Below, in pieces: positions 39,878-61,767 of a stretch of 64,000 bases of DNA. The position numbers and the translations under genes were made by a program. Numbering within the stretch: the stretch's first letter is position 1; each line of letters begins with the position of its first letter. The stretch spans positions 33,961 to 97,960 of the forward strand of contig CAYUCL010000003.1 of the NCBI GenBank assembly GCA_964443325.1. The letters are read 5' to 3'. Source of the stretch: an uncultured Dehalococcoidales bacterium. Lineage in GTDB: Bacteria; Chloroflexota; Dehalococcoidia; E44-bin15. Under the pieces are notes generated by a model that ran no database searches, was not told the origin of the DNA, and worked only from the letters and a program-made list of their open reading frames with translations.

Positions 39878-40126
39878 ATGAGCAGAATCATTTTAGAGAA
39901 GGTATTACTCTATCGAAAGGACGGAATGGTTCCCCAGGCCTTCATCTGGCGGGGCCGAGTCTACCGCATCACCAGCGTCATAAACTGGTGGCGAGAGCCC
40001 GGAGCCTGGTGGGAGGGGGAACCAGTACGCTCTTTTCTCCGGGTCACTGCTAAGAGGGAGACCGAAGGCGTATGCGACCTGTGCAGGGTGGGACAAGATT
40101 GGCTGCTGTACCGAATTTACGACTGA
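39878..40126 (+). CDS. small conserved-looking hypothetical protein (82 aa, Trp/Arg-rich) translationally overlapping the dnaE start
   Basis: MSRIILEKVLLYRKDGMVPQAFIWRGRVYRITSVINWWREPGAWWEGEP... Its stop at 40124-40126 lies inside the first codons of the DnaE ORF. Confidence 0.4.
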   Translation: MSRIILEKVLLYRKDGMVPQAFIWRGRVYRITSVINWWREPGAWWEGEPVRSFLRVTAKRETEGVCDLCRVGQDWLLYRIYD

Positions 40127-43100
40127 AGGAGTTCATTCACCTCCATGTCCATTCCCCATACAGCTTTCTCGACGGCGTATCCCCTATCGAGCGCCTTCTA
40201 CAGAAAGCAAAGCATTTCGGCATGCCTGCTATGGCCCTAACCGACCATAATAGCCTGACCGGAGCCATTCGCTTCTACGATAGGGCAAGGGAAATGGGCA
40301 TCAAGCCTATTATCGGCGCTGAGGTCGATGTCGAAGGTGGTTATCACCTGACCATTCTAGCCCAGGGTATCGAGGGGTATGCCAACCTGTGCCATCTTCT
40401 TTCCGAAGCCCACCTGGCCAAGCTCGATCCCCACCCGGCGGCTACCAAGGAGATGCTGGCCAGGCATTCCAGTGGTCTCACAGTCCTCTCCGGTTGCAAC
40501 AAAGGCGAGATTCCTAGCCTGGTCGCCAGGGGCCTCCCGGAAAAAGCGAAGGAAGCTGCAGCATTTTACCAGAGCATCTACCCGGACCGCTTCTACATCG
40601 AGCTTGTCTACCACCCCAACAGGGATGGCAGGCGCTCCATATATCGACTGCTGGAGTTCGCCAGGGAGCTATGTCTTCCCGTCGTCGCCACCAACGACGT
40701 TCACTATGCTGAGATGGAGGAATACGCCGTCCACGAACTCCTGGAATCTATCCGGCAGATTATTCCCATAGAGCAACTTCCGGGCCCCAGGACGGTGGAG
40801 CAGTACCTCAAATCCCCTACCGAGATGGCCGCCCTTTTCAGGGATATCCCTGAAGCCCTAAGCAACACGGTAGCGGTGGCCGAGCAATGCAATCTTGATC
40901 TCCCCCTGGGCGAGCCCAAGTTTCCCGTTTTCTCTCCTCCTGCCGGATACAGCGCGCAGAGTTACCTGAGGGAACTGACATATCAAGGAGCCTCGCGTAG
41001 GTATGGAAATCCCAGCACGGTGATCCTGGATCGCCTGAAGCACGAGTTTGAGGTTATTAGCCTACTGGACTTTGAGACCTATTTCTTAGTGGTGTGGGAT
41101 ATTGCCCGCTTCGCCAGGGAAAGAGGCATCCGCTACCAGTGCCGGGGCAGCGCCGTCAATAGCCTTGTAGTCCACTGCCTGGACATCAGCAATGTGGACC
41201 CGTTGGAGTACGATCTGCTCTTTGAGCGCTTCATGCACAAGGAGCGCCGCGAGATGCCAGATATCGATCTCGACTTTCAGCGCACCAGGCGGGATGAGGT
41301 GAAGGAATACATTACCAGCAAGTACGGCAGGAACAGCGTGGCGGCAGTGGCTACCATCAACACCTTCCAGGCCAGGAGCGCCATCCGGGAGGCAGCCAAA
41401 GCTCTCAACCTGCCTAAAAGTGCTTTAATAGGGCTTCAGGCAGGCGTCCGATGGCAGTCGGTAAAGGAGCTTGCAGCGTGCACCAATACTCTCCCCGAAT
41501 TGAAGACTAACCGAGCCCTCAGAAACCCGGTGTTCAGGGATTTTCTAAAGCTGTGCTCAGCCCTGGACGGTCTGCCCCGGCACCTGTCGGTGCACCTGGG
41601 TGGTCTGGTTATCAGTCCAGGCAGTCTTGCCGACTGGGTGCCACTGCAATGGTCCAGCGGCGGCGATGTCATCACTCAGTTCGAAAAGGACGACATCGAG
41701 CGTCTGGGCCTCATCAAGATGGATATCCTGGCCGTTCCCACACTGGACGTCATCGAGGACACGGTGGCTGAGGTGAAAAGAATCCGGGGCGTCGAGGTAA
41801 ACGTAGACTCCATCCCCCGAGACGATCCCGCAGTCTTTGCCATGCACCGGGAGGGGGACACCATCGGCTGCTTTCAGGTGGAGAGCCCGGCGCAACGGGA
41901 GATGGCAGGTAGGCTGCTTCCCGAATGCTTCGATGACCTGATACTGCTACTGGCTCTCATCCGGCCAGGACCCATGAAATCGAGGATGCACGAGAAATAC
42001 CTTAAAGTGAGACAGGGGCAACAGCCGCTGACCTATCTGGACAAAAGGCTGGAACCAGTGCTCAAGGAGACCCTGGGCCAGTTGGTCTACCAGGAGCAGG
42101 TGCTCCCACGAACTGGCGGGGATGAGCTACGCCGATGCCGACGGGCTGAGGCGGGCCATGACCCATGGACGCTCTCCCGAAGAGATGGAAAAGATACGCG
42201 AGGCTTTTATCTCCTCATGTCTGAGCAACAGCGTATCTAAGACAATTGCCCAGACAGCTTGGCAAGAGGTCTCAGCCTTTGCTGCATATGGCTTCCCCAA
42301 GGGTCATGCCGCCTCCTATGCCATTCCTGCCTATCAAACCTTGTGGCTTAAGTGCCATTATCTGCCGGAGTTCCTGGTCAGCGTCCTCAATAACCAACCC
42401 ATGGGCTATTATCCACCCTGGGTGTTGGTGCAGTATGCCGGGTGGAAAGGAATCGAGGTGCTGCCACCCGACATCAACATGTCCATGGATCGCTATTCCT
42501 TAGAGGATCGAGCTATCAGGATGGGGCTGTCTCAACTCAAGGGGGTCTCTAACCCAGCCTTGGCTTCTATACTCAGCGCCAAAAATAAGGATGGGCAATT
42601 CCGCAGTGTGGGGGACTTTCTGCTGCGAACAAACGTGCCCAAGTCAACCACTGAGGATCTCATCAAGGTGGGGGCCTTCGACTCCATTTGTGGTAACCGG
42701 TGCCAGCTTATATCCCAGCTAGATTCCCTGCTTACGAACAAGCAGAGGCGCAGGCATGGTACGCAGAATGAAATGATTCCCTTTGGCGAAGTTGGCAAGG
42801 AAAATCTCACCGATGCCTCAACTCCACCCATCGATGCTGCTCTGTGGCAGCACTACGAGCTTGACCTGCTGGGTCTTCCCATTAGCGGACACCCTCTGGA
42901 TTCGCTGGATGGCCGGATTAAGGGCATCACCAAAATCAAAGACCTGAAGGGGTTGCTAGCCAACCACCGGGTAAAACTTGCAGTGGGGGTTATCAGATAC
43001 CAGACCCCGCCTATCTGGGATGGAACCAGAGTTGTCTATATCTGCGCCGCGGACGAAACGGGCATTGTGGATATAACTCTCTTCTCGGACGCCCAGGAAC

Positions 43101-43246
43101 GCTCAGGTGAAGCTCTCTTCAAGGCAGGATGGCTCTTGGTTGAGGGAATTGTGCAGCGTCGAGGACTCCACGCACTGTCAGTGATAGCTTATCGTGTTGC
43201 CACCTTACAGCCCCCCGCTTCAAGTCAACGTAAAAAATGTTTTTAA
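40072..43246 (+). pseudogene. dnaE: DNA polymerase III alpha subunit (DnaE family, short form ending after the OB fold) interrupted by a +1 frameshift near 42100-42112
   Basis: ORF 40072..42240 carries the PHP domain (HLHVHSPYSFLDG) and polymerase core up to ...VYQEQVL. DnaE homology then continues in the +1 frame (HELAGMSYADADGLRRAMTHGRSPEEMEKIR..FAAYGFPKGHAASYAIPAYQTLWLKCHYLPEF..) as ORF 42122..43246. The combined length is about 1055 aa. Confidence 0.75.
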
Positions 43247-44306: not shown

Positions 44307-44504
44307 GTGGAAGTTCTAACAAATGGAGTGGGAACAAAAGAATGGGAGGAAATAAGTAAGGATTGGTATATTTACGCATATGTGCCAGGTTCTCCTATAG
44401 GTGATGTAACCGAAGGGTTATCTTCAGAAGAACAGGATAGTGTTTTCACGAAACAAGACTCTGAAAAAGTACTCAAAGAAGTTAGCCGCAAAATTAAGAA
44501 GTAG
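44307..44504 (+). CDS. small hypothetical protein (about 65 aa) translationally coupled to the proteasome homologue
   Basis: GTG at 44307, 1 nt after the TAA stop of the upstream gene, with GGAGGAAG 7 nt upstream. No family recognised. Confidence 0.3.
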   Translation: MEVLTNGVGTKEWEEISKDWYIYAYVPGSPIGDVTEGLSSEEQDSVFTKQDSEKVLKEVSRKIKK

Positions 44505-44665
44505 TTATTTGGCCTAGAACAGTCTTGAACATAGCTCTTTCATCTTTCCTATGATTGTATCGAAAGGTGTATTCGTCTAGACATGATTGGAGATACTTAG
44601 GTGATATAGCATGATAGACATCAGAAATACCACGCTTAACCAAAGACCAGAAACCCTCAATGCTA

Positions 44666-45181
44666 TTACTGCTGAGAATCCTTCTCCATCTCCTCCAGGA
44701 TGATTCTGGTTGTGAGCCTGGCTGTTTCCCCAACGAGCTTTGAGCAATAATCGAACATACCAAACTTCGTGGCTTCTTGTAGCTCATTAGGGTCATACAG
44801 GTTGAAAGTCCTGCCCATAAGCCTTTCTTGAATGTCGTAACACCGGCAAGTGCCATATTTTTCAACAAACTCGTCATGCAACCTTTTTGACAGTATATAG
44901 GATTTCAGCGGCTTCATCATATCGGCAAAATCCTTCCTTTCCCTGCCAAAAAGATAGCCTATCACTATAGCCCCTGCCGTGAGAGACCCACAAGTCCCAT
45001 CTCCGGTTAGCCCCAGCCCGTCAGCTAAACCACTCGCCGCCTTGAAAACATCTTCATTGTCAATATCAAGAGCATCGAAAATTCCCGCAATCGTAGTCTG
45101 TGCGCATCCAGTACATTCCCTTTCATACTTGCGCCCCCGCTCAAAGGCCTTATTTGAAATCTCTTCGATTGACTTTCCCAT
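44666..45181 (-). CDS. C_GCAxxG_C_C family (putative redox-active) protein
   Basis: CTGCAQTTIAGI motif plus downstream Cys residues. Start moved to the Met with an AAGGGGG RBS. Confidence 0.6.
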   Translation of the reverse strand: MGKSIEEISNKAFERGRKYERECTGCAQTTIAGIFDALDIDNEDVFKAASGLADGLGLTGDGTCGSLTAGAIVIGYLFGRERKDFADMMKPLKSYILSKRLHDEFVEKYGTCRCYDIQERLMGRTFNLYDPNELQEATKFGMFDYCSKLVGETARLTTRIILEEMEKDSQQ

Positions 45182-45344
45182 ATAATTCCCCCTTACTGTT
45201 TTTTCAAACAACATACTTCGATGAGAAATACTTATCTATGCCACACATAATTGTACCATCTCACCAGCATTAATGACCAAGCTAAATGCCCAGGATCTAC
45301 CACCGCTTATTCTAATCCCCTTGCACGGCCAAGCGTCCACATGC

Positions 45345-46784
45345 CTATGGCAACTTATACACTGGCTCTGTAGGTAGATCCTTGAAATCAGGATGGTCCG
45401 TAGGAAGTCCCAGAGAATGCCTGGCCGCAGCCTTATATCGCTCCCAATCGGCCTGCATATAAACCGTCATTCGCTGAGCCGCCAAAGACCCCTCAGCATG
45501 AATGGTAAGCGCTCCCATGAAAGACGAGCCCTCACGGTTTACCGCATTCATAAGTTGTATCCTCTCCTCAGCAGGATACTCCGCAGCGCCCTGAAGATAC
45601 TTCTCCAGATAAGGACGGATTTCGGGATTGTCCCAGTCCTTCAGCGAAGGCATGGTTGCTGGAAGCCCACCAGTTATGTCCTGGAGATACTTGACTGCCT
45701 GATGCCAATTTTCGGCAAACCAGAACTTAGCACAATTGCTATAGACCGGATTGGGCGCCGCCAGACCTATCTCCGGGTCTATTGTAGCGTCTAAAGCTGC
45801 TGCCTTGCCCAGAGCCTCATTTATCTCAGCATACATAGCAAGCCAGGCTAGCATGTCCATAATACGGGTAGCACGAGTGAGTCCATTGTGTTCTGCCATT
45901 AACATGGCAGTCCCTGCAAGCGTCTGGAGCATAACCGTCTTGTAGGTGGCGGCAGTAAGTCGATGGTATCGCGCGAATGACATCGCTACCTCCCTTGAAA
46001 ACTGCCACTCCCCGGCGAGGAAAACCTTGTCCCAGGGAACAAAAACATCGTCAAAGACAATCATCGGGTGTGCCCCAGGCTGCCCCTGATCCGACATAGT
46101 CCCAATAAAAACAACCCCTTTGGCGTTGCATGGTACGGCACAGGCCACAGCATAATCTTTGGCCGGCTCATTGTGGTTGCGTGAGGGCAATACTACTAGC
46201 CAATTGGCATAAATGGCGTCGGTGATGTGAACCTTGGCACCCCTGATGACGATACCATCGCTGCTTCGGTCAACGATCCTGACATAGAAATCTGGATTCG
46301 CTTGCCTTGGGTCTTCGGGGTGCAAGCTCCTGTTGCCTTTCACATCGGTCATTGTAGCAACAATGCCAGGGTCATGTTTCTGACAATAATTGCGGAATTC
46401 TTCAACGTGCTCGGCATAATTGGTGCCTATCGCCAGGTCCATCTTCCTGGCGCTGTAGGCAATTCCGTTCAGTCCATCAATTCCGGTGAACTTCGTACCT
46501 CCGGCAGCCGAGCGAAACAGCGTCTGAATGATCAGTCTCCGTCTCTGAAGATCTTCACCAGTCTTAGGCACGTGATAAACAAAAGGATACTCTTCCCCAT
46601 CCTTCACCACATTGAACAGCTCACGGTTCTCAGGCTGCAAAGCTATATAGTATTCTGAAGCTGCGTGCTCCACTGCTCTCTTGTAAGCTGGAAGGGAAGG
46701 TACATCCGATACCCTCTCCCCATCCTGGTAAACTACCCTTCCATCTCTCAGGTCTTCTACAAACTGCTCAGGCGTCCTAAGCAT
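45345..46784 (-). CDS. HpaB / 4-hydroxybutyryl-CoA dehydratase family flavoenzyme, paralog of 31516..33003
   Basis: 479 aa. Conserved blocks DFYVRIVDRS.DGIVIRGAK.H.T, IVFDDVFVPW.KVF..GEWQFSR and TIHAEGSLAAQRM are shared with the other copy. AAGGAGG RBS. Confidence 0.65.
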   Translation of the reverse strand: MLRTPEQFVEDLRDGRVVYQDGERVSDVPSLPAYKRAVEHAASEYYIALQPENRELFNVVKDGEEYPFVYHVPKTGEDLQRRRLIIQTLFRSAAGGTKFTGIDGLNGIAYSARKMDLAIGTNYAEHVEEFRNYCQKHDPGIVATMTDVKGNRSLHPEDPRQANPDFYVRIVDRSSDGIVIRGAKVHITDAIYANWLVVLPSRNHNEPAKDYAVACAVPCNAKGVVFIGTMSDQGQPGAHPMIVFDDVFVPWDKVFLAGEWQFSREVAMSFARYHRLTAATYKTVMLQTLAGTAMLMAEHNGLTRATRIMDMLAWLAMYAEINEALGKAAALDATIDPEIGLAAPNPVYSNCAKFWFAENWHQAVKYLQDITGGLPATMPSLKDWDNPEIRPYLEKYLQGAAEYPAEERIQLMNAVNREGSSFMGALTIHAEGSLAAQRMTVYMQADWERYKAAARHSLGLPTDHPDFKDLPTEPVYKLP

Positions 46785-47046
46785 GATACCTCCTTAGTCT
46801 GTTCTTAATTATGCACATATTTTTAAAAAACAACCCTAACGTTATTTTCGCGATATGACCCCCTCCCTTCATGTATCTCTATGAGTCAAGGCATCGATAT
46901 TGTGGTATTTCCAAGTTGCCTTGTCAATTATTTGTATTTACCCACACCAACGTTATACTATCATACCACTATCCGAAATCTTTTTAAAAAAAGAATGAGC
47001 CCCCCGACTTCACCGGAGGGCCCCATTCAATATTCCCAGCCTATCT

Positions 47047-49578
47047 CTAGCCCAGTCCTTGCACTGTCCTCTGGATAATATTGTCCTGTGTCTTGCGGCT
47101 GATGTCCACAAAATGGGCGCTGTACCCAGCCACCCGCACTATCAACTCCTGGTACTTCTCCGGCTCCCGCTGCGCCGCCCGCAACGTGGCATCATCTACC
47201 ATGTTGAACTGCACATGGTCCAGCCCCAGGTCAGCCCATGTCTTCATGTACGCCTTCCATAGCTGATACCCCTTCTCCCCCGCTAGCTGCGTCGGAGAAA
47301 GCCGCTGGTTCAACAGGAACGCCCGGCCATCGCTGATGTGGTTTATCTTGCCGCATGACTTCAGCACCGCTGTTGGCCCCTTCTTGTCAAGTCCAGGGCC
47401 TGGTGAAAGGCCTCCGTCGTAGAGGGCGTCGCCCAGCCTCCTGCCATTGGGCAAGGCATGTACCCTATTGGAGAAATGGATGTTGCCGCTCACATTCTCC
47501 GGCAGCACCGGCCATGGGTTTCCGCAAGGGTCCTTCAACTCGTGGGAGTGTCGGCTTATTTCGTGCAAGCAGCGCACCATTATATCGTCCACGTAGTCTT
47601 CATCATTGCCCCACTTGGGAGCTCTCTTGACGAAGTCAAGCCGTATTTCCTCGTAGCCCTCCCAGTTGGCTTCAAGGGCGGTTATCAACTGGTCCATTGA
47701 GTACTTCTTATCTTCAAATACGAGCTTCTTCACCGCCGCCAGAGCATCTACATTCTCTACCCATGTGAAGAAGGTAACCCAGCTATTGCCTCGCTCACCA
47801 GACCTTGGGTCGACTGTGTCCCAACCGCTGTCCACCGACCTCTCGGAGATGCCCGACAAGAATGGACGACCGAAACTCTTATAGGAATTCGCCCGCCCGG
47901 CGTTAACGATGCGCACCCCAAAGTTCATCAACCACTCCATCTGTTTGACCCACGCCTCAAACAATTGCTCAAAGTCGGTGAACTGACGCGCATCGCCAGT
48001 CTTCGGCCCTATCTGCATCTGCATACAATGGTCATATCCATTATGGAGGGCATACTCGATCATCTTTGCGGCGTTCATAGTCGCCGATGCCATTCGGCAC
48101 GGCTGATAGCCATACTTGGTGGTGGGAGCGGGCGACATGCACGCCTGGTGCACCCATGTCCTCATCTCCTCCAGAGGGTGATTATGCCAGTACATCCCAT
48201 TTTGAATCAGGATGGGGTCATTGCGAATCGAGGGATAGCCCAGACCATGCCTGATACACTCGAATATCTCCCGCATTACCTCATCTTTTACCTGAGGATG
48301 CCAGCGGAAGCCAAAGGTAGGGTTGGACACCCGCACCATCCTCGCCGCCTGCAGGAACGCTGTCGTCAGGTCGGTACATGCATCACTACCATCCTTATTT
48401 ACCCCACCCAGAGTCCACACCCAGGTGCCTACTATGCCCTGCAGCGCTTCGGCTCCACCTCGGCCTAAAAAGTGGCCCATTTCGTAGGCTCGGATGAGGG
48501 ACTCCCCTACCAGGTCGAGCGCTTCGTCCTTGGTGAGTGTCTTATCTATATTCACATCCTTGTTGTAATAGGGCCAGCCATAGTAGTCCGGTCGTGTAGG
48601 CCACGCCGACTCAAATTCCTCCAGTCTGGTCCAGGTTTGTATGAAGTGCTGCATCTGCAAATGCTCCTGGAAGGTTCTGGCCGGCTTCGCCGGCACCCGC
48701 TCGCAGGTTTCGGCGACCTTCAGCAGCTCCTCCTTGCGCCTGGCATCCGGTTCATAGTTCTCCGCTATAATCCGCGCCAGCCTTGCATATCGCTTAGCGT
48801 GATTGATGCAACCCTCCAGTGCGATCTGCATCGCCTCCCAGTTGGGCAGCTTCTCGTAAATGTCAAGCTCAGCACCATCGGGCGTGCCATCTAGCTGATC
48901 CTCACCCTCATCGATCTTCACCTGGATGTCGTTGATCATATCCTCGAATCCCTTGCCACCACCCACCTCCTGGTTCTTACCAAATATGTACTCATAATCT
49001 TTACCGGAATAACCATAGCTGCCACCGAAAGGAAAACCCCACATGAGCGCCCCTGTAATGTACTTCCCCACATCCTCAGACCTGAGAATCTTGAACATCT
49101 CCTTTATATGACCCTGAGTGCCCCAGTAGTTGGCGACATCAGACATAATCTGTAAGGATTCCTCCTTCGGCTCAGGGATGATGATCGGATCATTGTAGAT
49201 CTCACCACCCATCATCTGCGCATTGGCATACAGGGTGTTCGGAAGGTTACCCTCAGTAGCTACAAGCTGTGCATGATCGCTTATGAAAACAGTCCTGTTT
49301 TCCATCATATAGGCCAGAGCCTTCGCCCTCCTCAGCATGAGGGGGTTACCTTCGCTCGCCTTCCAGCCCTCGGTGTATAGCTGTGGGCTTTCCAGGTCAA
49401 TCTTTAGACCCTGTTCATACGCCCCTCCCCTTCGCCCCTTTTTCCACACCGCTTTCCTCAGGTAGTCCAGCCTCGGCGACCTCTTCTTCTCCGCCGCCCA
49501 CCACCACGCCCTTTCCGTCTCGAGCTCATCTACAGACTTATCTGGCGCTGCACTTTGCTTTGCTATTATTTCCGCCAT
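47047..49578 (-). CDS. glycyl radical enzyme, X-succinate synthase (fumarate-adding enzyme, BssA/AssA-like) catalytic subunit candidate
   Basis: 843 aa. Glycyl radical loop RVAGYSAHFVDI at the C-terminus, Cys loop HQACMSPAP, GND(E)D block, and multiple blocks recalled as BssA-like (see findings). Confidence 0.7.
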   Translation of the reverse strand: MAEIIAKQSAAPDKSVDELETERAWWWAAEKKRSPRLDYLRKAVWKKGRRGGAYEQGLKIDLESPQLYTEGWKASEGNPLMLRRAKALAYMMENRTVFISDHAQLVATEGNLPNTLYANAQMMGGEIYNDPIIIPEPKEESLQIMSDVANYWGTQGHIKEMFKILRSEDVGKYITGALMWGFPFGGSYGYSGKDYEYIFGKNQEVGGGKGFEDMINDIQVKIDEGEDQLDGTPDGAELDIYEKLPNWEAMQIALEGCINHAKRYARLARIIAENYEPDARRKEELLKVAETCERVPAKPARTFQEHLQMQHFIQTWTRLEEFESAWPTRPDYYGWPYYNKDVNIDKTLTKDEALDLVGESLIRAYEMGHFLGRGGAEALQGIVGTWVWTLGGVNKDGSDACTDLTTAFLQAARMVRVSNPTFGFRWHPQVKDEVMREIFECIRHGLGYPSIRNDPILIQNGMYWHNHPLEEMRTWVHQACMSPAPTTKYGYQPCRMASATMNAAKMIEYALHNGYDHCMQMQIGPKTGDARQFTDFEQLFEAWVKQMEWLMNFGVRIVNAGRANSYKSFGRPFLSGISERSVDSGWDTVDPRSGERGNSWVTFFTWVENVDALAAVKKLVFEDKKYSMDQLITALEANWEGYEEIRLDFVKRAPKWGNDEDYVDDIMVRCLHEISRHSHELKDPCGNPWPVLPENVSGNIHFSNRVHALPNGRRLGDALYDGGLSPGPGLDKKGPTAVLKSCGKINHISDGRAFLLNQRLSPTQLAGEKGYQLWKAYMKTWADLGLDHVQFNMVDDATLRAAQREPEKYQELIVRVAGYSAHFVDISRKTQDNIIQRTVQGLG

Positions 49579-49678
49579 TTACCTTACCTCCCGGTTTTTA
49601 CTCACGCCCCTGCAATCAGGGTAATCACCACTAGACTGCCACCAGCTTGCTCTTTTCTCGCTACCCCCCAACCCTGCG

Positions 49679-50035
49679 TCACTTCATCAACTGCCTTTGG
49701 TGACGACTATACCGCGGGTCGAATGCCTCTCCAATATCAGTGTCGATAAGCTCCATCTCTTTATAATACTTACACTTGCTGGCATCCATCTTTATATCTG
49801 ACATCAAGTTCACTTCACCATCCAGCACAAACACCGGCGGCTCGCTCTCAATCTGAGAACCCATTTTCAAAACGAGACAGTGACCGGCGGTAAGTCCGGC
49901 AGAAGCGAAAAAGTTCTTGCATTTCCCGCATGCCTTTTCGGGTATATACTCCCTCTCTTCTACAGTTTTGCCCAGCTCTTGCATACTCAAATAGCCCTGC
50001 TTCACCTGATCCCATTCACTCTTTCTCCTCGGCAT
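49679..50035 (-). CDS. small Cys-containing protein (118 aa), candidate Fe-S small subunit (BssC/AssC-like position) of the GRE
   Basis: ATG at 50035 with an AAGGAGG RBS. Four Cys residues (CGKC...GHC...SKC). Immediately upstream of the GRE gene on the same strand, 101-nt gap. Confidence 0.35.
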   Translation of the reverse strand: MPRRKSEWDQVKQGYLSMQELGKTVEEREYIPEKACGKCKNFFASAGLTAGHCLVLKMGSQIESEPPVFVLDGEVNLMSDIKMDASKCKYYKEMELIDTDIGEAFDPRYSRHQRQLMK

Positions 50036-50080
50036 GCCACCCTCCTTTCCGTTATCTCCATATATCAAAACTGTAATGCT

Positions 50081-50110
50081 ATTTTGAAATAACCATGCTG
50101 GCTTGTCAAT
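50081..50110 (-). promoter_or_regulatory. candidate promoter for the small-subunit/GRE operon (minus strand TTGACA, 18-bp spacer, CAAAAT)
   Basis: TGTCAA at 50105-50110 and ATTTTG at 50081-50086 on the plus strand, about 45 nt upstream of the ATG at 50035. Confidence 0.3.
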
Positions 50111-50255
50111 TCTTTCCTATTAGCTAAGCCAATATTAAATGATTTTGTCATAATCTAACTATTCTGGATAAATGTGATGTGAGGTCAAGGCATTAACACT
50201 TGAGGTTGGGTTTCTAACTGCTATTCACATTTCCCTTAGATTTGAGGCCTTGTTG

Positions 50256-51434
50256 CTACTGCCGGCTTAGCTCGACGAACCCGGTCTCCTCCACACAGGT
50301 ATCCGTGCCATATATCCGCTTCTTCCAACGGACACTACCACCGACCACCCGCAGCGCACCGGCATACAGTGCAGCCAGATAAAGAAATGAGAATCCAAAC
50401 GGGTGCAGTAGAGTCGAAACAGGCGACTCCTTGAAGCGATTGTGCACAAGCCAGCGCATACTTATTATGGCAACCACCTGAAAAAATATAACGCCTCGTA
50501 TTTCAATTGGAGTAGCATTCAAAACAAGTACGTTCCAAAGCGAGTAGAAGGGAGCTAAAAAGAAAATGTAGCCCGCTACAAACATCCCAACATACCCCAC
50601 CGGCGATATTGCTGCTATTGGATAAAGCGACCTGACAAGCCCCTCCCACATCGCTCCTACGCTCCGGTACATATTGCATGAAACCACCGGCGATAAATCA
50701 ATTGCCATATGCCGCCCGCCATGTCGGCAGACCTCCGCACCCAGCCAGACATCTTCAATTATTTTGGACTTCACCGCCTCATGTCCGCCAATGTGCCAGT
50801 ATGCCTCTGTCGGGAAAAGCATGAACTGACCTATAGCCAGTGACGGTTTCGGCTTCTTGCAGCGCTGAAGCCACCACAATGGTAACCAGCTCATGATAAT
50901 AAAGTATATGACTGGAATTGCCACCTTCTGAGGTAAAGAAGTGGTAAGCTGACGGGGAAGCCCAGATAACAGCGCAGGTTTTGATTTAAGAGCCAAGGCA
51001 AGCACACTGCGTAGCATATGGGGAGCATGAGTGGTATCAGCATCGATAAACAGCAGCCATGAACCTCCAGCCACCTTGGCCAATTGGTGGCAGGCGAAGG
51101 GCTTGCCTGCCCAGCCTTCATCACGAGGTTCGCCCCTGAGCAGTCGGATACGGCTGTCAGTAGCCGCCATCTGTTGCACGATATGAGCCGTATTATCCGA
51201 GGAGTCGTCATCCAGCACCAGAATCTCAAAATTGGGATAATCCTGTTTCTTCAGACACTCTAGACAGTTCCCGATGTTCGCTTCCTCATCCCTGGCGGGA
51301 ATAAGAACAGATATGAGAGGTGCTGGATCGGCTATGACGCCATCAGCCAGTGGTCTCTTGAGGGATCTCAAATTGAGAACAAGATTAAACACAAAGATAA
51401 GGAGGCCTGCGGCTATGACCATCTGATATATCAT
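50256..51434 (-). CDS. glycosyltransferase family 2 membrane protein
   Basis: SVLIPARDEE...LDDDSSD...FIDADT GT2 motifs, with N- and C-terminal TM helices. Confidence 0.7.
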   Translation of the reverse strand: MIYQMVIAAGLLIFVFNLVLNLRSLKRPLADGVIADPAPLISVLIPARDEEANIGNCLECLKKQDYPNFEILVLDDDSSDNTAHIVQQMAATDSRIRLLRGEPRDEGWAGKPFACHQLAKVAGGSWLLFIDADTTHAPHMLRSVLALALKSKPALLSGLPRQLTTSLPQKVAIPVIYFIIMSWLPLWWLQRCKKPKPSLAIGQFMLFPTEAYWHIGGHEAVKSKIIEDVWLGAEVCRHGGRHMAIDLSPVVSCNMYRSVGAMWEGLVRSLYPIAAISPVGYVGMFVAGYIFFLAPFYSLWNVLVLNATPIEIRGVIFFQVVAIISMRWLVHNRFKESPVSTLLHPFGFSFLYLAALYAGALRVVGGSVRWKKRIYGTDTCVEETGFVELSRQ

Positions 51435-51457
51435 GCTCTCGTCCTGCGATTGCTAAC

Positions 51458-52084
51458 TCAGGTTTCTCGCCCCTTTATTTGAAGCCAACCAATCAGCCTT
51501 CCGTTAAGGCTGGGAATAGTCTGCAACTCACGATAATGCTTCAGTGCCAATATTGCAAGCACACACAGCATGAACAACGATTCCCAGGGTCTTGCCCCCA
51601 TAATTGCAAGGCAAGCCAATGAACCCGCTGCGGTGAGTATGACTGCCCATGCGTCAGTACGTACGAAAAGGAAAGCTAACACCATTAGGACGGTAAACGT
51701 AGCCAGTATCTCGTACTGAGGCAGCGCCAGCATGACACCAAAAGTGATAGCTATCGCTTTACCCCCTCTGAAGCGGAGCAGGGGGGAGAAGGCATGTCCC
51801 AATATCGCACTCACTGCGACCGCCATAACTGCCGGCTCTGACAAACTAAAAAACCAGTGCGCCAGCGCTACGAATGGCACACCTTTCAATATGTCCAAGC
51901 CCAATGCAAGGGAACCAAGCTTACGGCCTCCAGATCGGAACACATTGGCAGAACCGGGATTGCCATCTCCGTAATCTCTTATATCTTTACCCAGGCGCCA
52001 CCGGCCAATCCACACCGAAAACGGGCATGCACCTAGCGAGAAGGCGCCCAGAGCTAGCAGTAGAAAACAGAATAAATCCCCCAT
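51458..52084 (-). CDS. plsY: glycerol-3-phosphate acyltransferase PlsY
   Basis: DGNPGSANVFRSGG and LDILKG signature, 208 aa, five TM helices. Confidence 0.8.
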   Translation of the reverse strand: MGDLFCFLLLALGAFSLGACPFSVWIGRWRLGKDIRDYGDGNPGSANVFRSGGRKLGSLALGLDILKGVPFVALAHWFFSLSEPAVMAVAVSAILGHAFSPLLRFRGGKAIAITFGVMLALPQYEILATFTVLMVLAFLFVRTDAWAVILTAAGSLACLAIMGARPWESLFMLCVLAILALKHYRELQTIPSLNGRLIGWLQIKGRET

Positions 52085-52648
52085 TTGAATGCTCTCGATA
52101 GAAATTGCTCAGATACCTTGCTTTTCTACGCGTAACATAAACCATAACCCCATTGTTAGTCAATAGCAGAAAAGGTACCTTAATCCGTGGATTCTTCTTG
52201 AGGGCTGAGGGAGTCCTCTCCCTCAGCTTTCGTGAAGGAATCCTTCACAGAAGGACCTTCACGCCTCAGAAAAAACCAACTAACAGACGAGTCTTTTGAA
52301 TCCGAACTCACAGACCAAGGAGGTAGGTGCCAGAGATATTTTGCCAACCATAAACCGGGCCATAATGACAGATAACACCTTATATCTTAAGATAACTTTA
52401 TACGGTTAATAGGAGCGTAGGCTGTTCTCTCGGACCACTTTCGGCCAGTTTGTGAGACCCCATGCTGCCGATGCCACCTGGTATGTTGAATGTGCTATAA
52501 TTCCGCGAGGGGCTTAAGGCAGAGTGTTTTGCATTCTGCCACTACGAACGACCAGGCATGCAAAATCTACGCTTGATAGCGTGTCAAAGCTATACAAGCA
52601 GGCAGAGCTTGGTCAGTATTGCTACATATACAACGGGGGGCTGATTGT

Positions 52649-53542
52649 ATGAATCATAAATGGCAGCATCGTTTTGTGAATACAAATGGAATCCGTATGC
52701 ACTACGTTGAGCAGGGAGAGGGTTTCCCCGTGCTCCTCCTCCATGGTTTTCCCGAGCTTTGGTATTCATGGAGATACCAGATACCGGAGTTGGCCAATGC
52801 CGGCTTCCACGCCATTGCACCCGACCTGCGCGGCTATGGTGAGACAGACAAGCCTGAGGGCATCGAGTCCTATGACATCCATCATTTGATTGGAGACCTG
52901 GTAGGTTTACTTGATGCTCTTGAGTTGGAGCGCGCAGTGATTGTAGGGCATGATTGGGGTGGCATTATTACCTGGCAGATGGCTTTGATATGTCCAGAGC
53001 GCGTTGAGCGAGTGATCTCACTGAATACTCCTTTCCAACTTCACGGCCCCGTGCGGCCAACAGAGGCCTTCAGCCAAACCCCTGACGGCCGGTTCAACTA
53101 TATCATCTATTTTCAGCAGCCGGGACAGGCCGAAGCGGATATTGAGCCTAATATAGAGGCCTTTTTGGAAACGACGATGCGCCGTCTCGCCACAGAAGAA
53201 AGCTTCATTACCGAGGAGACCCTCAAGGTCTTTTCTAATGCCTTCCACAAAGGGGGCCTAACTGGCCCGATTAATTACTATCGCAACTTCGACCGCAACT
53301 GGGAGACAACCGCTCATCTCACAGGCCGCAAAGTCACTATGCCCGCACTCATGATTTGCGCCGAAAATGACTCGATACTCACACCACAAATGACGAATGG
53401 TATGGAACGTCATGTTCCCAATCTCACCACTCGCCTGGTTAAGAATTGCGGGCACTGGACCCAGCAAGAGCGACCCGACGAGGTCAACCGCCTGATCATA
53501 GAATTCCTTCACGACCTGAAGAGGAGGCGAGACAATGTTTGA
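52649..53542 (+). CDS. alpha/beta hydrolase, epoxide hydrolase / haloalkane dehalogenase-like
   Basis: HGFPELWYSWRYQ motif and GHDWGG nucleophile elbow. The start at the internal Met is preceded by a G-rich RBS. Confidence 0.75.
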   Translation: MNHKWQHRFVNTNGIRMHYVEQGEGFPVLLLHGFPELWYSWRYQIPELANAGFHAIAPDLRGYGETDKPEGIESYDIHHLIGDLVGLLDALELERAVIVGHDWGGIITWQMALICPERVERVISLNTPFQLHGPVRPTEAFSQTPDGRFNYIIYFQQPGQAEADIEPNIEAFLETTMRRLATEESFITEETLKVFSNAFHKGGLTGPINYYRNFDRNWETTAHLTGRKVTMPALMICAENDSILTPQMTNGMERHVPNLTTRLVKNCGHWTQQERPDEVNRLIIEFLHDLKRRRDNV

Positions 53543-54563
53543 ACTAATATTTGATGAAAAGAAATGCTTGGCTTGCCAGACTTGTGATTGTCTCACCAAG
53601 TGCCAGTATATGGATATAGACATAGATACAGCGAAAACAGAGATGAGGAAGATAATCAACGGTGAAGATTCTTTCGTATTACACCAGTGCGTAACATGCT
53701 ATGCCTGCGAGGAATACTGCAAAATGGGGAACCACCCCTTCTATCTAATCGCTGAGCGCCAGGAAGAACTGGGCATACCGCCTACGCCCAAGCCTGTTAT
53801 CAGGCAATGGGTTCAATTGGCTATCCCGCAGATGGGAGAACTCAAGATTGAACAGGTTAAGGAGCCGGTTCTCAGTATGTGCATGTTCGGTCAGCTTGCT
53901 GGTTCAATCCAGGGGAAACTGTTTGACGGTGTCTCCATTCTACCAAGGGAGAATCAAGAAGGGATGCAATTCTTCTGTCAGTTGATGTACCTGCACTTTG
54001 CCAGGACTTCCGTAATAAAAGAGAGGCTCCCGAGGATAATAGAGAACATCACCAAGCACAATATCACAGAGCTCATATGCTTCCACGACGAGTGCTACGG
54101 TACCTTTACCTCATACGCACCTGCCGTGGGCATCGAAGTCCCGTTCAAACCAATTCATTTCTTTGAGTATCTGTACAACAGGCTAGTGGAACTCAAGGAC
54201 GACATAAAACCGCTGAATTTGAAGGTGGCTTATCAGCGTCCCTGCTCGTCCAGGCTTTCCCCAGAAAAACTCCACTTCGTCGACGATATCTTCAACCTGA
54301 TAGGGGTGGAGAGCGTCAAAAGAGAGTATGTTGGCGAGAATGCCCTATGCTGCGGAGCACCTATCAGAGGACAGAGAAAGGAAGGAAGCCGTCAACTCGC
54401 TATTGATTTGCAGCGGAGAAACATACAGGATATGATTGACGCTGGGGCCGAATTCTGCGTTTTCAACTGCCCCTATTGCTTCCTTACCCTGTCGGAGCGC
54501 GTTACCAAGAGCGGCTTGAAGCCCGTCTTTATGGGCGACCTTTGCCGGCTCGCCGTTGGCTAG
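53535..54563 (+). CDS. Fe-S oxidoreductase with two ferredoxin-type Cys clusters and a C-terminal CCG domain (HdrD/GlpC/LutA-like)
   Basis: CLACQTCDCLTKC, CVTCYACEEYC, LCCGAP and CVFNCPYC motifs. ATGTTTGA overlap with the upstream hydrolase gene. Confidence 0.7.
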   Translation: MFELIFDEKKCLACQTCDCLTKCQYMDIDIDTAKTEMRKIINGEDSFVLHQCVTCYACEEYCKMGNHPFYLIAERQEELGIPPTPKPVIRQWVQLAIPQMGELKIEQVKEPVLSMCMFGQLAGSIQGKLFDGVSILPRENQEGMQFFCQLMYLHFARTSVIKERLPRIIENITKHNITELICFHDECYGTFTSYAPAVGIEVPFKPIHFFEYLYNRLVELKDDIKPLNLKVAYQRPCSSRLSPEKLHFVDDIFNLIGVESVKREYVGENALCCGAPIRGQRKEGSRQLAIDLQRRNIQDMIDAGAEFCVFNCPYCFLTLSERVTKSGLKPVFMGDLCRLAVG

Positions 54564-54588
54564 AAACTAGCATAATGGAGATGATACT

Positions 54589-55968
54589 GTGGATTCAATA
54601 TTTAAATCATTAGCTGAAATAGTTGGAGAAAGTCACGTCTCCAGCCAACCAGAGGAGCTTTATATCTATTCTTATGACCTTGGCACGACTGAGCCTCATC
54701 GTCCGGACTATATAGTGGCGCCGAGGACGACTCATGAAGTGCAAGAAATAGTTAAGCTAGCAAATAGGGGGAAAATCCCGGTGGTTCCTCTTGGAGGCGG
54801 GTTGTCCCTAGCTGGTCTGGCTGTGCCTCAGCGGGGAGGCATCGTGCTGGACCTAAAGAGGATGGACACAATAATAGAGGTAAATGGAAAGGCAAGGTAT
54901 GTAGTTGTCGAGGCTGGCGTTTCACAGGGGCAGCTAATATCCTACCTGGAGAAGTACCACCCCAAACTGAGACACTCAGAGCCACAGGCACCAGGTCCAG
55001 CCACGATTGCGGGCAATGTAGCGATACACGGTCAAGGCGATCTGGCTCAGCCGTATGGCTTCAATTCCGATATGGTGAACGGGCTAGAGGTTGTCTTACC
55101 AACAGGAGAGTTGTGCAAAATCGGCTCCTGTTCAGTATCTCCCATTTGGTTCACCCTACACCCCTTGCCCGATTTAGGTCTCTTCCTCGGATGGTCTGGC
55201 ACCACGGGCATCATTACCAAGCTGTCGCTTAAGCTTTTCCCATCGAAAAGGATCAGGGAAGTGGAGCAGTTTATAGTCGAGGATGCGGAGCTGGTTCCAG
55301 AAATTATATACAAAATCAGTCACACAGAGATGGCTGAAGATATATTCGCCGGAACTCAAACGACCATTCCTGCTCGTATGGGTCTCCACCATGTAACTAT
55401 GTATATCACCGCTGATTCGGAAAAGGAACTCGAATTCAAGACAGGGTTAATCTGGGATGACGCACTCGGGGAATATATTCGGAATGGAGATGGGGGGTTC
55501 GTCGATTTACCACCCCCTATAAAAGCTCGCTTTACCGAGAGACCCAGTATGCTGCTGTCTACAGTCGCTGATGCCAAAGAGGGTGGAGGCTTTGAATATG
55601 TCGGGGGCATTATGCCAATGGAAACCTACCCTGAGTGCTGCAAGCGAGGGGCTGAGATCTGTTCCAGACACGATATTCCTCAACTGTTGATCGCGCGGGT
55701 TATTGGACGGTCTCACTCTATGATGTTTGCCTGGGCATATGTATTCAATCGCGCTGACCTTGAGAGCATCAGGCAAGCGAGGGAAGCCGTACATGAAACG
55801 GACGACCTTGTCCTGGAGTTGGGTGGGGCTATCTGGAAACCCGGCGTTTATGGACAGAGGCTAATGATGCAACGAATTGACCCTACTACTCTCAAACTCA
55901 TGGAGATGGTAAAGGGGCTTCTCGACCCTAACGGCATTATGAACCCTGGAAATTGGGAGGCAGTATAA
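54589..55968 (+). CDS. FAD-linked oxidase (GlcD / D-lactate dehydrogenase family)
   Basis: FAD_binding_4 region PRTTHEVQEIVKLANRGKIPVVPLGGGLS and a C-terminal FAD-oxidase_C region. GTG start. Confidence 0.8.
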   Translation: MDSIFKSLAEIVGESHVSSQPEELYIYSYDLGTTEPHRPDYIVAPRTTHEVQEIVKLANRGKIPVVPLGGGLSLAGLAVPQRGGIVLDLKRMDTIIEVNGKARYVVVEAGVSQGQLISYLEKYHPKLRHSEPQAPGPATIAGNVAIHGQGDLAQPYGFNSDMVNGLEVVLPTGELCKIGSCSVSPIWFTLHPLPDLGLFLGWSGTTGIITKLSLKLFPSKRIREVEQFIVEDAELVPEIIYKISHTEMAEDIFAGTQTTIPARMGLHHVTMYITADSEKELEFKTGLIWDDALGEYIRNGDGGFVDLPPPIKARFTERPSMLLSTVADAKEGGGFEYVGGIMPMETYPECCKRGAEICSRHDIPQLLIARVIGRSHSMMFAWAYVFNRADLESIRQAREAVHETDDLVLELGGAIWKPGVYGQRLMMQRIDPTTLKLMEMVKGLLDPNGIMNPGNWEAV

Positions 55969-56147: not shown

Positions 56148-57194
56148 ATGTATGAATTAAAATTTGATGAGAGGAAATGCATAGCCTGTAAGACTTGTGA
56201 TTGCCTCACCAAGTGCCAGTATATGGATATAGACAGGGATACAGCAAAAACAGAGATGCGCAAAATAATCAATGGTGAGGATTCCTTTGTATTACATGAT
56301 TGCGTAACATGCTATGCCTGCGAGGAGTACTGTAAAATGGGCAACCACCCCTTCTATTTGATCGCTGAACGCCAGGAAGAACTAAATATACCGCCTATGC
56401 CCAGGCCTCTTATCAAACAAGCTGTCCAATTGGGCATCCCCTGGAGGGGAGATCTCAAGATTGAGGAGGTCAAGGAGCCTGTGCTAAGTATGGGTATGTT
56501 CGCTCCGCTTGCCAATTTAATACAGGGGAAGCTTTTTGAAGGTCTCTCTCTCCTATCAGTGGATCCTCGAACGGCGGTTCATCTTTTTTGTCAGCTCATG
56601 TACCTGCACTTCGCCAGGACATCGGTAATAAAGGAGAAATTGCCAGGCATCATAGAAACTATCGCCAAACACAATGTCAAAGAGGTCATATTTTTCCATG
56701 ACGAGTGCTACGGTACCTTTACCTCATATGCCCCTGCGGTTGGCATTGAAGTCCCGTTCAAATCTATTCATTTTCTCGAGTATCTCTACAACAGGCTAGT
56801 GGAACTCAAGGATGATATCAAACCGCTGAATCTTAAAGTGGCTTACCAGCGCCCCTGCTCATCCCGTCTTTCCTCGGATAAGCTCCACTTTGTCGATGAT
56901 ATCTTCAACCTGATAGGGGTAGACGGCGACAGAGAGTATGTTGGCGAGAATGCCCTGTGCTGTGGAGGTACGATCATAGGGCAAAGATATGAAGGAAGAT
57001 ATGAACTCGCTGCTGATGTACAAAGGAGAAATATTGAAGATATGGTGAACGCTGGCGCTGAGCTTTGTGTCTTTAATTGCCCTGCTTGCTACGATACCCT
57101 AAGACGTTTGGTCACCAGAAATGGCATATGGCCCATATTTATGAGCGATCTTTGCCGACTCGCCATAGGCGAGCAACCTGCAGGATGGAGGTGA
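56148..57194 (+). CDS. Fe-S oxidoreductase with CCG domain, paralog of 53535..54563
   Basis: Same Cys motifs, about 80% identical. Confidence 0.7.
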   Translation: MYELKFDERKCIACKTCDCLTKCQYMDIDRDTAKTEMRKIINGEDSFVLHDCVTCYACEEYCKMGNHPFYLIAERQEELNIPPMPRPLIKQAVQLGIPWRGDLKIEEVKEPVLSMGMFAPLANLIQGKLFEGLSLLSVDPRTAVHLFCQLMYLHFARTSVIKEKLPGIIETIAKHNVKEVIFFHDECYGTFTSYAPAVGIEVPFKSIHFLEYLYNRLVELKDDIKPLNLKVAYQRPCSSRLSSDKLHFVDDIFNLIGVDGDREYVGENALCCGGTIIGQRYEGRYELAADVQRRNIEDMVNAGAELCVFNCPACYDTLRRLVTRNGIWPIFMSDLCRLAIGEQPAGWR

Positions 57195-57198
57195 TATT

Positions 57199-58569
57199 AT
57201 GGATTCCATATACAAAGCCCTGGTTGAAATAGTGGGGGAGGACCATGCTTCCACCGAGCAGGAGGAGCTTTACATCCATTCTCGCAGTCTAGGGACGGTA
57301 GAGCCCCACCAGCCCGACTATGTAGTGGCGCCGAGGACAACAGAGGAAGTTCAACAAATAGTTAAGCTGGCAAATAGAGAGAAAATTCCCGTAGTTCCAC
57401 TGGGGGGTGGATTATCTCTAACCGGTCTAGTCATGCCTCTGCGAGGAGGCATTGTGCTAGACATGAAAAGGATGGATACAATAATAGAGGTAAACGAAAA
57501 GGCAAGGTATGTAATTGTCGAGGCTGGCGTTTCACAGGGTAAACTAATATCCTGCCTGGAGAGGTATCATCCTAATCTGATGCACTCAGAGCCTATGGCA
57601 CCAGCCCAAGCCACAATTGCGGGCAATGTGATGATACATGGTCAAGGTGACCTGGCGCAGCCGTATGGTTTTAACTCTGACATGGTTAACGGACTTGAGG
57701 TTGTACTACCAACAGGAGAGGTGTGTAAAATAGGCTCCTGTTCGGTATCTCCCTATTGGTTCACAGCACACCCTTTACCTGATTTAGGGCTCTTCCTCGG
57801 ATGGTTTGGCACCACAGGCATCATTACCAAGCTGTCGCTTAGGCTTTATCCCTGCAAAAAGATAAACGGTGTAGATCGATTCTTGGTAGAGGATGCTGAG
57901 CTAATTCCAGAGATCCTACTCAAGATCACTCACACAGAGATGGTGGGAGATCTGGTTTCTTCCATCCAAGGACTCCCACTTGCGGTTAGGGGAATCCACA
58001 TCATAACAATCAACATAAACGGAGATTCCGAGAAGGAGATCGAGTTTAAGAGGCAATTGATCCGCGAAGATATCCTAGGGGAATATATTCGGAATGGGGA
58101 TTGCGGATTTATGGGTACGACGCCAGATTTGAGAACAGGGCAACAGAGACCTACGATTACAACGGTCGCTGACATTAAGAGGGGTGGTGGATTTGAATAT
58201 GTTGGAGCAATACTACCGGTGGATACATATCCCGAGTGTTGCAGAGAAGGTGAGGCGATCTCTTCAAGACACGACATTATCTACACTTTAGGAGGACGAG
58301 TTATCGGAAGGTCTCACGCCATGATGTTTTTCTGGTCATATGCATTCAATCGAGCAGACCCAGAAAGCGTCAGACAGGCAAGGGAAGCACTACATGAATC
58401 AGATGAGCTTGCCCTTAAACTAGGAGGGGTCCCCTGGAAGCCAAGTGTTTATGGACAGAAGTTAATTATGGAGAAGATGGAACCAAATACCCTCGAATTG
58501 ATGAGGAAAATAAAGGAGCTTCTCGACCCTAACGGAATTATGAACCCTGGAAATTGGGAGGTAATGTAA
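57199..58569 (+). CDS. FAD-linked oxidase (GlcD family), paralog of 54589..55968
   Basis: About 75% identical, same domain layout. Confidence 0.8.
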   Translation: MDSIYKALVEIVGEDHASTEQEELYIHSRSLGTVEPHQPDYVVAPRTTEEVQQIVKLANREKIPVVPLGGGLSLTGLVMPLRGGIVLDMKRMDTIIEVNEKARYVIVEAGVSQGKLISCLERYHPNLMHSEPMAPAQATIAGNVMIHGQGDLAQPYGFNSDMVNGLEVVLPTGEVCKIGSCSVSPYWFTAHPLPDLGLFLGWFGTTGIITKLSLRLYPCKKINGVDRFLVEDAELIPEILLKITHTEMVGDLVSSIQGLPLAVRGIHIITININGDSEKEIEFKRQLIREDILGEYIRNGDCGFMGTTPDLRTGQQRPTITTVADIKRGGGFEYVGAILPVDTYPECCREGEAISSRHDIIYTLGGRVIGRSHAMMFFWSYAFNRADPESVRQAREALHESDELALKLGGVPWKPSVYGQKLIMEKMEPNTLELMRKIKELLDPNGIMNPGNWEVM

Positions 58570-59759: not shown

Positions 59760-59837
59760 CTAATTACGGAATAGATTTCCTTTAGTAACCATATTCCCCG
59801 TATCAAATCATCCTTCTTTCTTAGCAGGAGATTAATC

Positions 59838-61595: not shown

Positions 61596-61767
61596 ACAAA
61601 ACGCAACTCGACAGCGTGCCCCTCCCATTTGAGCTACCGCCTTAGCTACTCAAAAAACGATGGATTTCACACAATTTTAGCTGAATATGACTGACACAAG
61701 AGCGGACACCGCCGTTAAAGCCAGACCTGGAGCCCTATTTAAATGCTAGTCTGAAACTGGCCCTGCT

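Follow-up and report, generated by a model that had tools for sequence, protein, structure and literature searches.

Among relatives of solved structure, the closest to the enzyme considered here is (1-methylalkyl)succinate synthase (MASS) of the denitrifying betaproteobacterium Azoarcus (Aromatoleum) sp. HxN1, an alkylsuccinate-synthase (Ass/Mas)-type X-succinate synthase (XSS). Its catalytic alpha subunit, MasD, is encoded in one cluster (masBCDE plus activase) with its accessory subunits, and a 2025 structure (PDB 9o8u) gives each of these accessory subunits a role (Andorfer et al. 2025, PMC12358834). Within the Dehalococcoidia, Dong et al. (2020, Nat Commun, PMC7673041) reported assA genes in cold-seep metagenome-assembled genomes (MAGs), frequently as two or more variants in a single MAG, and proposed syntrophic alkane degradation by these bacteria. 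Here, we describe a masD/assA-like gene (positions 47047-49578, minus strand) in 64,000 bp of contig CAYUCL010000003.1 from an uncultured Dehalococcoidales bacterium, a stretch (50.8% GC) that we refer to as the window. Our results support a model in which the product of this open reading frame (ORF), from an uncultured member of the Dehalococcoidia, is the catalytic alpha subunit of an Ass/Mas-type XSS and the ORF is apparently co-transcribed with a beta-subunit gene, a reading to which we assign a probability of roughly 0.85. The locus reveals no new enzyme class: Ass-type enzymes are already published for the Dehalococcoidia, and this one is a further, well-anchored member in a host class from which the family has been reported.

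A masD-like gene encoding a predicted alkylsuccinate synthase alpha subunit

The 843-residue ORF starts with ATG, has a GGGAGG ribosome-binding site 8 nt 5' of this codon, and is called as an identical protein in both the NCBI and JGI assemblies. It carries a PFL-like domain (PF02901, E 1.6e-119) and a Gly_radical domain (PF01228, E 1.4e-28), and the features that define the superfamily of glycyl radical enzymes (GREs), a PFL-like barrel, an RVxG[YF] loop and a Cys loop, are all present. The C-terminal Gly loop, RVAGYSAHFVDI, spans residues 815-826 (RVAGYS at 815-820), and the Cys loop, HQACMSPAP, spans residues 477-485 (ACMSP at 479-483). Both loops had been pointed out in an initial annotation made from the sequence alone, which contrasted the Cys loop with the GCVE and CC types of other GREs, and every other peptide block that it quoted is likewise found in the ORF (residues 247-301, 388-405, 438-454, 522-543, 617-661 and 732-823). 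Comparisons with close relatives gave dN/dS values of 0.05-0.16 for the masD-like gene and of 0.11-0.19 for the adjoining beta gene, with dS up to ~1.4, as expected under purifying selection; one 58-codon fragment from locus L011 gave 0.64 and is excluded from these ranges. Because of its ribosome-binding site, motifs, Pfam domains, identical public calls and purifying selection, we conclude that a real and intact gene, rather than a fortuitous reading frame, is present.

In a search of all PDB chains, the best match of the encoded protein is MasD of strain HxN1 (9o8u_A; 1193.7 bits, residues 13-843), followed by the benzylsuccinate synthase (BSS) subunit TutD at 493.9 bits and by all other GRE classes at ~330 bits or less, and the MasD score is ~3.6 times that of any non-XSS GRE. 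Identity by BLASTP is 60.7% to MasD (833 residues) and 35.5% to TutD. NCBIfam, which lacks a model for Ass/Mas, matched the protein with twelve GRE models, all of them far under their cut-offs (best 416 bits, cut-off 1000). A structure predicted by AlphaFold2 from 50 aligned sequences (mean pLDDT 80.9, pTM 0.85) retrieved only GRE structures in a Foldseek search, first 9o8u_A (TM 0.90/0.92, 60% identity) and then BSS (TM 0.84), and adds little beyond a solved structure that is 61% identical. Together with the fumarate-binding arginine and the MASS-type pocket described below, these matches bear out the earlier proposal of a fumarate-adding GRE catalytic subunit related to the alkyl- and benzylsuccinate synthases.

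The MASS cryo-EM study identified Cys477 as the catalytic residue and Arg492 as binding fumarate (PMC12358834). Tyr194, Thr598 and Glu690, where BSS has Ser199, Asn615 and Gln707, set fumarate and hydrocarbon binding in MASS apart from that in BSS, and Phe600 is also among the residues that make binding differ; Trp185 gates the substrate channel, and the alkane cavity has Phe192 at its distal end (PMC12358834). We read the equivalent positions from a MAFFT alignment of 101 sequences, in which the MasD and TutD sequences were taken from the printed HMMER alignment, with their lengths checked, and TutD numbering is one less than in the literature. In this alignment, MasD W185, Y194, C477, R492, T598, F600, E690 and G814 correspond to W180, Y190, C480, R495, T602, F604, E694 and G818 of the masD-like protein. 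Arg495 aligns with MasD Arg492 and TutD Arg508 and is invariant in 99/99 of the Ass-type sequences aligned. MASS Phe600 aligns with BSS Ile617, and where TutD has Asn615, Ile617 and Gln707 the masD-like protein has Thr602, Phe604 and Glu694; none of the three BSS-type pocket residues was found in it by alignment. Of the named MASS residues compared, Phe192 is the sole one to differ, with Tyr188 in its place, and no other position in the set varies as much among family members (G, F, Y, V and further residues).

Thus the enzyme shares with BSS (BssA/TutD, PDB 4pkf/5bwe) the XSS class, the Gly/Cys radical relay and the fumarate-binding arginine, whereas with MASS it also shares the Tyr/Thr/Glu environment of fumarate, the channel tryptophan, the Phe600 equivalent and a neighboring MasB-type beta gene. 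The initial annotation had named a lack of fumarate-binding residues as grounds for abandoning its proposal and had asked for a hydrophobic pocket; because Arg495 and the other fumarate-binding residues are present, those grounds do not arise, and the alignment indicates that the MASS-type pocket residues Trp180, Tyr190, Thr602, Phe604 and Glu694 are kept.

Phylogenetic placement and host

A protein search returned 589 matches at E<=1e-50. One of them, P0001 (NCBI and JGI, on contigs of up to 164,919 bp), is 100% identical and is followed by graded metagenomic relatives at 87-75% identity and by the named or cultured AssA proteins of Desulfothermus naphthae, Desulfoglaeba alkanexedens and Desulfatibacillum at ~64-70%. 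Among the AssA proteins of Desulfobacterota, identity is 64-68% to those of Desulfoglaeba and Desulfatibacillum and 60-62% to that of Smithella, and these share the signature residues. In a neighbor-joining tree (101 sequences, 831 columns, 100 bootstraps), 18 sequences, the query among them, form a clade with 100% support; they are Chloroflexota/Dehalococcoidia or metagenomic. We refer to these sequences as the query clade. It lies within a clade of 29-32 sequences (support 93-96%) that also holds sequences from Thermodesulfobacteriota and Spirochaetota MAGs, and the Ass/Mas radiation in turn encloses this wider group, with MasD of HxN1 and the AssA proteins of Desulfoglaeba, Desulfatibacillum and Smithella branching further out. 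Because of this nested position, our distance tree, which has TutD as its single outgroup and is without NmsA, HbsA and IbsA, places the enzyme inside the characterized Ass/Mas group. The suggestion of a lineage outside the characterized Bss/Ass/Nms/Hbs enzymes is therefore not upheld, and the MASS-type Thr/Phe/Glu residues, in place of Asn/Ile/Gln, speak against it as well.

The host assignment draws on several observations. The 90% clusters to which the three closest sequences belong contain MAGs named as Dehalococcoidia or Chloroflexota, and a scan of GTDB species genomes at >=75% identity found only Dehalococcoidia, Dehalococcoidales or Chloroflexota MAGs, with the exception of one partial fragment; these matches include cold-seep "CSMAG" and "tar_biofilm" genomes. 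Window positions 48123-52156, which hold genes for PlsY and a glycosyltransferase as well as masB and masD, are colinear with Dehalococcoidales contig L076 at 90.8% nucleotide identity. Of ten other window proteins looked up, 9/10 have a public record, in every case on the same NCBI contig of 164.9 kb, and the named cluster mates of those nine are Dehalococcoidia in all cases but one. The window also contains housekeeping genes, among them dnaE and plsY. Because of these named relatives, the colinear contig, the nine contig-mate proteins and the housekeeping genes, we conclude that the masD-like gene truly sits in a Dehalococcoidia genome. An intact alpha-beta pair lies on a long contig, reported as 164.9 kb, together with Dehalococcoidia housekeeping genes, and this therefore argues against mis-binning. 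Recent horizontal transfer was considered and set aside, as the GC content of masD (0.547; GC3 0.677) falls in the range covered by the window's other genes.

The beta subunit and the two-gene unit

The ORF that lies 100 bp upstream of the masD-like gene encodes a MasB-like protein. Its start codon is the ATG at 50035, preceded by AGGAGG, and the public assemblies call the same 118-residue protein, which is also recovered by tblastn; a longer ORF of 129 residues that begins with a TTG at 50068 is probably not used. Cys36, Cys39, Cys53 and Cys88 align with MasB Cys32, Cys35, Cys51 and Cys86, such that all four ligands of the [4Fe-4S] cluster are kept. A MasB-type beta subunit with a CX2CXnCXnC motif, encoded together with alpha as in the MASS holoenzyme, is thus present at this locus. 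Beta subunits of this type have no sequence similarity to BSS-beta (PMC12358834).

The beta subunits of the query clade (those of the window, L076, L085, L016, L012, L005 and L010) differ from canonical ones in a short region. The conserved DTDGTEC is DTDIGEA in these proteins, with loss of a fifth cysteine that is held by the four canonical-type betas aligned (HxN1, Smithella, Desulfomonile and L025). The loop that precedes the third cluster ligand, Cys53, is altered and, in the window protein and its closest relatives, is two residues shorter than in MASS. The corresponding loop region of MASS-beta is described as plugging the substrate channel (PMC12358834).

The two genes appear to form a unit that is apparently co-transcribed. 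A promoter-like match precedes masB, and we take the unit to be closed after masD because a terminator-like hairpin follows it; these signals, like the second promoter-like site ahead of the next gene, are consensus matches only (Table 1). The HpaB/4-hydroxybutyryl-CoA-dehydratase-like gene directly downstream was considered as a further part of the unit and rejected, as the terminator-like and second promoter-like sites lie in between and this gene is not beside alpha in other relatives.

Accessory genes in the window and across the clade

Several observations weigh against the assignment or limit its reach. We searched for the remaining components of the synthase by tblastn (E<=1) with canonical subunits from Smithella, Desulfosudaceae and Desulfomonile loci (three gamma, four delta and two Ass activase sequences), a query set that detects gamma, delta and activase genes in other loci. 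In the 64 kb window, this search gave no match to a MasC-type gamma subunit (~55-60 aa, [4Fe-4S]), to a MasE-type rubredoxin-like delta subunit (~71 aa) or to a PflA-type activase, and the window contains no CxxxCxxC radical-SAM ORF. The same three genes are missing from the 7.6 kb past the 3' end of the window, as covered by the NCBI contig L088, of which positions 1-4923 are 100% identical to window 59078-64000. Delta and beta were found to be needed for activity in E. coli in work cited by the MASS paper (PMC12358834). The beta subunit that is encoded here has the altered loop and lacks the fifth cysteine. The AlphaFold2 model is unreliable near the Gly loop, where residues 806-833 have pLDDT values below 50. 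The sequence does not tell which substrate is used; the pocket position of Tyr188 varies widely across the family. The window yielded neither methylmalonyl-CoA-mutase-type nor carboxyltransferase genes for the alkylsuccinate pathway. Finally, we know of no member of the Dehalococcoidia that has been shown experimentally to make alkylsuccinates.

A motif scan of the window revealed no small Cys-rich ORF other than MasB, and gamma may be encoded elsewhere in the genome. A radical-SAM protein encoded 0.5 kb beyond the end of the window was evaluated as a candidate activase and rejected: its motif reads CxxxxCxxC, it shares no similarity with the Ass activases, and its matches, to methyltransferase/MiaB-type models, are weak.

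The local absence of these genes is not confined to this locus. We compared alpha genes with at least 1.5 kb of flanking sequence on both sides and counted a partner if it lay within 4 kb. Canonical Ass loci have gamma in 32/42 cases, beta in 29/42, delta in 30/42 and activase in 27/42, and in the Desulfobacterota activase, gamma, alpha, beta and delta genes usually lie together. By contrast, the loci of the query clade have beta in 4/6 cases and gamma, delta and activase in 0/6 each. The reduced gene set is thus a trait of the query clade, and the beta-alpha arrangement is kept across several genomes and contexts. Alpha genes are also multiplied in some loci: beta is followed by two tandem alpha genes in L005 and L010, and L004, which begins at its first alpha, has three in tandem. 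The extreme amplification of the catalytic subunit is found in a sister-clade Spirochaetota MAG (contig JAXHTS010000064.1, 1-22523), where at least eight near-tandem AssA-like alpha genes of ~840 aa each are interspersed with a gene for a DctP solute-binding protein and a few unrelated genes, and no small-subunit or activase genes lie between them.

Fuller gene sets occur in the same host class. The Dehalococcoidia MAG CSMAG_2522 carries a beta-alpha locus of the query clade (L011) and also a second locus (L084), in which a remnant of gamma at the edge of the contig accompanies alpha, two delta-like genes, two genes for PflA-type activases and a MoxR-like ATPase. In Dehalococcoidia Kmv37 (L025), a partial activase gene is followed by beta, gamma, alpha and delta. 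Dehalococcoidia therefore possess the full Ass machinery.

Some relatives of the masD-like protein are truncated. P0007-P0009, at 83% identity, occur on four independent contigs (L006-L009; for example L006 10001-12367) and end at 788-790 aa, before the Gly loop; the stretch downstream looks tRNA-gene-like by eye. These sequences are probably gene remnants.

The query matches the genes reported by Dong et al. in host class, gene family and multi-variant pattern, and cold-seep CSMAG Dehalococcoidia MAGs are among its closest relatives. The beta-alpha-only architecture is not described in the part of that paper available to us (PMC7673041). Nor have we seen this architecture, the altered beta loop before Cys53 or the lost fifth cysteine described in the literature, as far as the available parts of these reports extend. 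With the present locus, more weight falls on the inference, already in print, that Dehalococcoidia abundant in sediments can initiate the anaerobic breakdown of alkanes by adding them to fumarate, and genomes with beta and alpha only provide a natural setting in which to learn what subunits the enzyme requires and whether paralogous catalytic subunits can share them.

Proposed mechanism and alternative readings

We envision a scenario in which the masB-masD pair is a satellite module, one among several paralogous ones, that draws on a gamma-alpha-delta-activase cluster encoded in trans. We propose several such modules because the locus is without genes for gamma, delta and activase, and a trans-encoded cluster because the related MAG CSMAG_2522 has both types of locus. 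Judging from the window and the adjoining 7.6 kb, the pair most likely relies on trans-encoded gamma, delta and activase. By analogy with the family, a radical-SAM activase encoded elsewhere would place a radical on Gly818, from which it would move to Cys480. The Cys480 thiyl would then take hydrogen from a saturated hydrocarbon in a hydrophobic pocket formed by Trp180, Tyr188 and Phe604, and the resulting alkyl radical would add to fumarate held by Arg495, Glu694, Tyr190, Thr602 and the oxyanion hole of the Cys loop. The product would be an alkylsuccinate, a substrate for CoA activation and for beta-oxidation-type enzymes. The beta subunit would be expected to gate substrate entry, as proposed for MASS-beta. 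The addition of an alkane to fumarate is thus a predicted reaction, attributed by family membership. In keeping with this, the earlier statement that the organism can activate a hydrocarbon by fumarate addition holds for the type of enzyme; as an unqualified capability it does not stand, given that activase, gamma and delta genes were not found in the window.

The alternative that best survives is that the enzyme adds fumarate to something other than a medium- or long-chain n-alkane, be it a gaseous, iso- or cycloalkane or another aliphatic C-H donor, with the paralogues acting on different substrates. We regard this as possible, though on balance doubtful. The tandem arrays of two to three alpha genes in L004, L005 and L010 and of at least eight in the Spirochaetota MAG could be understood in this way, and Dong et al. 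take multiple assA variants to mean multiple substrates (PMC7673041). The variability of the MasD Phe192-equivalent position and the change in the beta loop at the channel-plug region point in the same direction. However, all named residues of the MASS fumarate and alkane sites other than Phe192 are identical, and we found no sequence pointer to any specific alternative substrate.

A more far-reaching interpretation, which we consider unlikely although worth stating, is that the query clade and its sister clade of Thermodesulfobacteriota and Spirochaetota MAGs, some from tar biofilm, have a differently organized XSS. Alpha would be amplified, from one to three up to at least eight tandem copies, and accompanied by at most beta; either alpha and beta would form a minimal complex or one trans-encoded set of gamma, delta and activase would serve many alphas. 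If the latter were true, bacteria outside the Desulfobacterota that live by fermentation or syntrophy would have a modular system for activating hydrocarbons, with multiple substrates.

It is very improbable that the gene is a redundant or decaying, non-functional paralogue cut off from activase, gamma and delta. The lack of those genes within 64 kb, a remnant of an IS1595 transposase 2.2 kb downstream and the clade members P0007-P0009 that stop before the Gly loop would fit such a history, but the reading frame is intact with every catalytic residue kept, alpha and beta are both under purifying selection, each gene is preceded by a good ribosome-binding site, the pair lies between promoter-like and terminator-like sites, and the beta-alpha arrangement recurs in several genomes and contexts. 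Least tenable, and effectively already refuted, is a GRE that does not add fumarate (a dehydratase, lyase, decarboxylase or PFL): NCBI's generic name "pyruvate formate lyase family protein" and matches (E 1e-90 to 1e-124) to dehydratase and lyase models of NCBIfam can be cited for it, but those scores are far under the equivalog cut-offs, which excludes PFL, CutC, HypD, glycerol/propanediol dehydratase, HPAD and the isethionate/sulfopropanediol enzymes, the ACMSP Cys loop is neither GCVE nor CC, and MasD outscores every such enzyme by the margin given above. We therefore favor the model in which masD encodes the alpha subunit of an Ass/Mas-type synthase.

Flanking genes

Table 1. Positions of the masB-masD pair, its putative expression signals and other features of the window.
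Feature	Position	Strand	Remarks
masD/assA-like gene, catalytic alpha subunit	47047-49578	minus	843 aa; alkylsuccinate-synthase-type XSS
masB-like gene, beta subunit	49679-50035	minus	118 aa; HiPIP-like [4Fe-4S] protein; E 1.2e-14 to 9o8u_B (MasB)
Sigma-70-like promoter match, TTGACA-17-CAAAAT	50081-50109	minus	upstream of masB; 10/12 consensus positions; consensus match only
Intrinsic-terminator-like hairpin and T-run	46987-47023	minus	12 bp stem, 8 G-C pairs; 24 nt after masD stop; consensus match only
Second promoter-like site, TTGACA-17-CACAAT	46927-46899	minus	ahead of next gene; consensus match only
HpaB-family proteins	45345-46784; 31516-33003	minus	JGI: 4-hydroxybutyryl-CoA dehydratase/vinylacetyl-CoA isomerase; first directly downstream of masD
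C_GCAxxG_C_C redox protein	44666-45214		after HpaB-family gene
IS1595-family transposase remnant	44494-44877	minus	C-terminal 40 residues match, E 7e-10; 2.2 kb downstream of masD
Four enoyl-CoA hydratase/isomerase genes within 8 kb	2460-4251; 8746-10587	plus; minus	flanked by MFS transporters and glycine-betaine-type ABC transporter
Adjacent family-III CoA-transferase paralogues	36570-37772; 37806-39008	minus	400 aa each; 64% mutual identity
dnaE (DNA polymerase III alpha), two overlapping ORFs	40072-42240; 42122-43246	plus	different frames
CCG-domain protein and FAD-linked oxidase pair, twice	53535-55968; 56148-58569	plus	
Fe-S/CCG protein	58554-59759	plus	
Electron transfer flavoprotein (ETF) beta/alpha	59838-61595	plus	after Fe-S/CCG protein

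The wider window holds genes for acyl-CoA metabolism: four enoyl-CoA hydratases, a 3-hydroxyacyl-CoA dehydrogenase, ETF alpha and beta, two family-III CoA-transferases and two HpaB-like proteins. To judge from its gene content, this metabolism could process alkylsuccinates, though it is unspecific to them; the enoyl-CoA hydratase region in particular indicates a strong acyl-CoA content. The two CoA-transferase paralogues differ strongly in GC content at codon position 3 (0.74 and 0.47), and the pair recalls the two-subunit arrangement of succinyl-CoA:benzylsuccinate CoA-transferase.

Beyond window position 64000, at ~0.5-7.6 kb (L088 5459-11678), lie genes for the radical-SAM protein discussed above, a DUF5658 membrane protein, a 101-aa ORF, a second GRE and two further family-III CoA-transferases. 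The second GRE, of 773 aa and with RVAGFSARF as its Gly loop, is a member of the PFL2/glycerol-dehydratase family that scores below every NCBIfam equivalog cut-off; it was rejected as a further XSS and represents an unassigned PFL2/dehydratase-family enzyme.

The first of the two dnaE ORFs contains the PHP, pol3-alpha and finger domains and the second the end of the finger domain and HHH_6; the split reflects a frameshift, an assembly error or a pseudogene. On the other side of the masB-masD pair, the genes between 53535 and 61595 look like an ETF-coupled 2-hydroxyacid or acyl dehydrogenase module.

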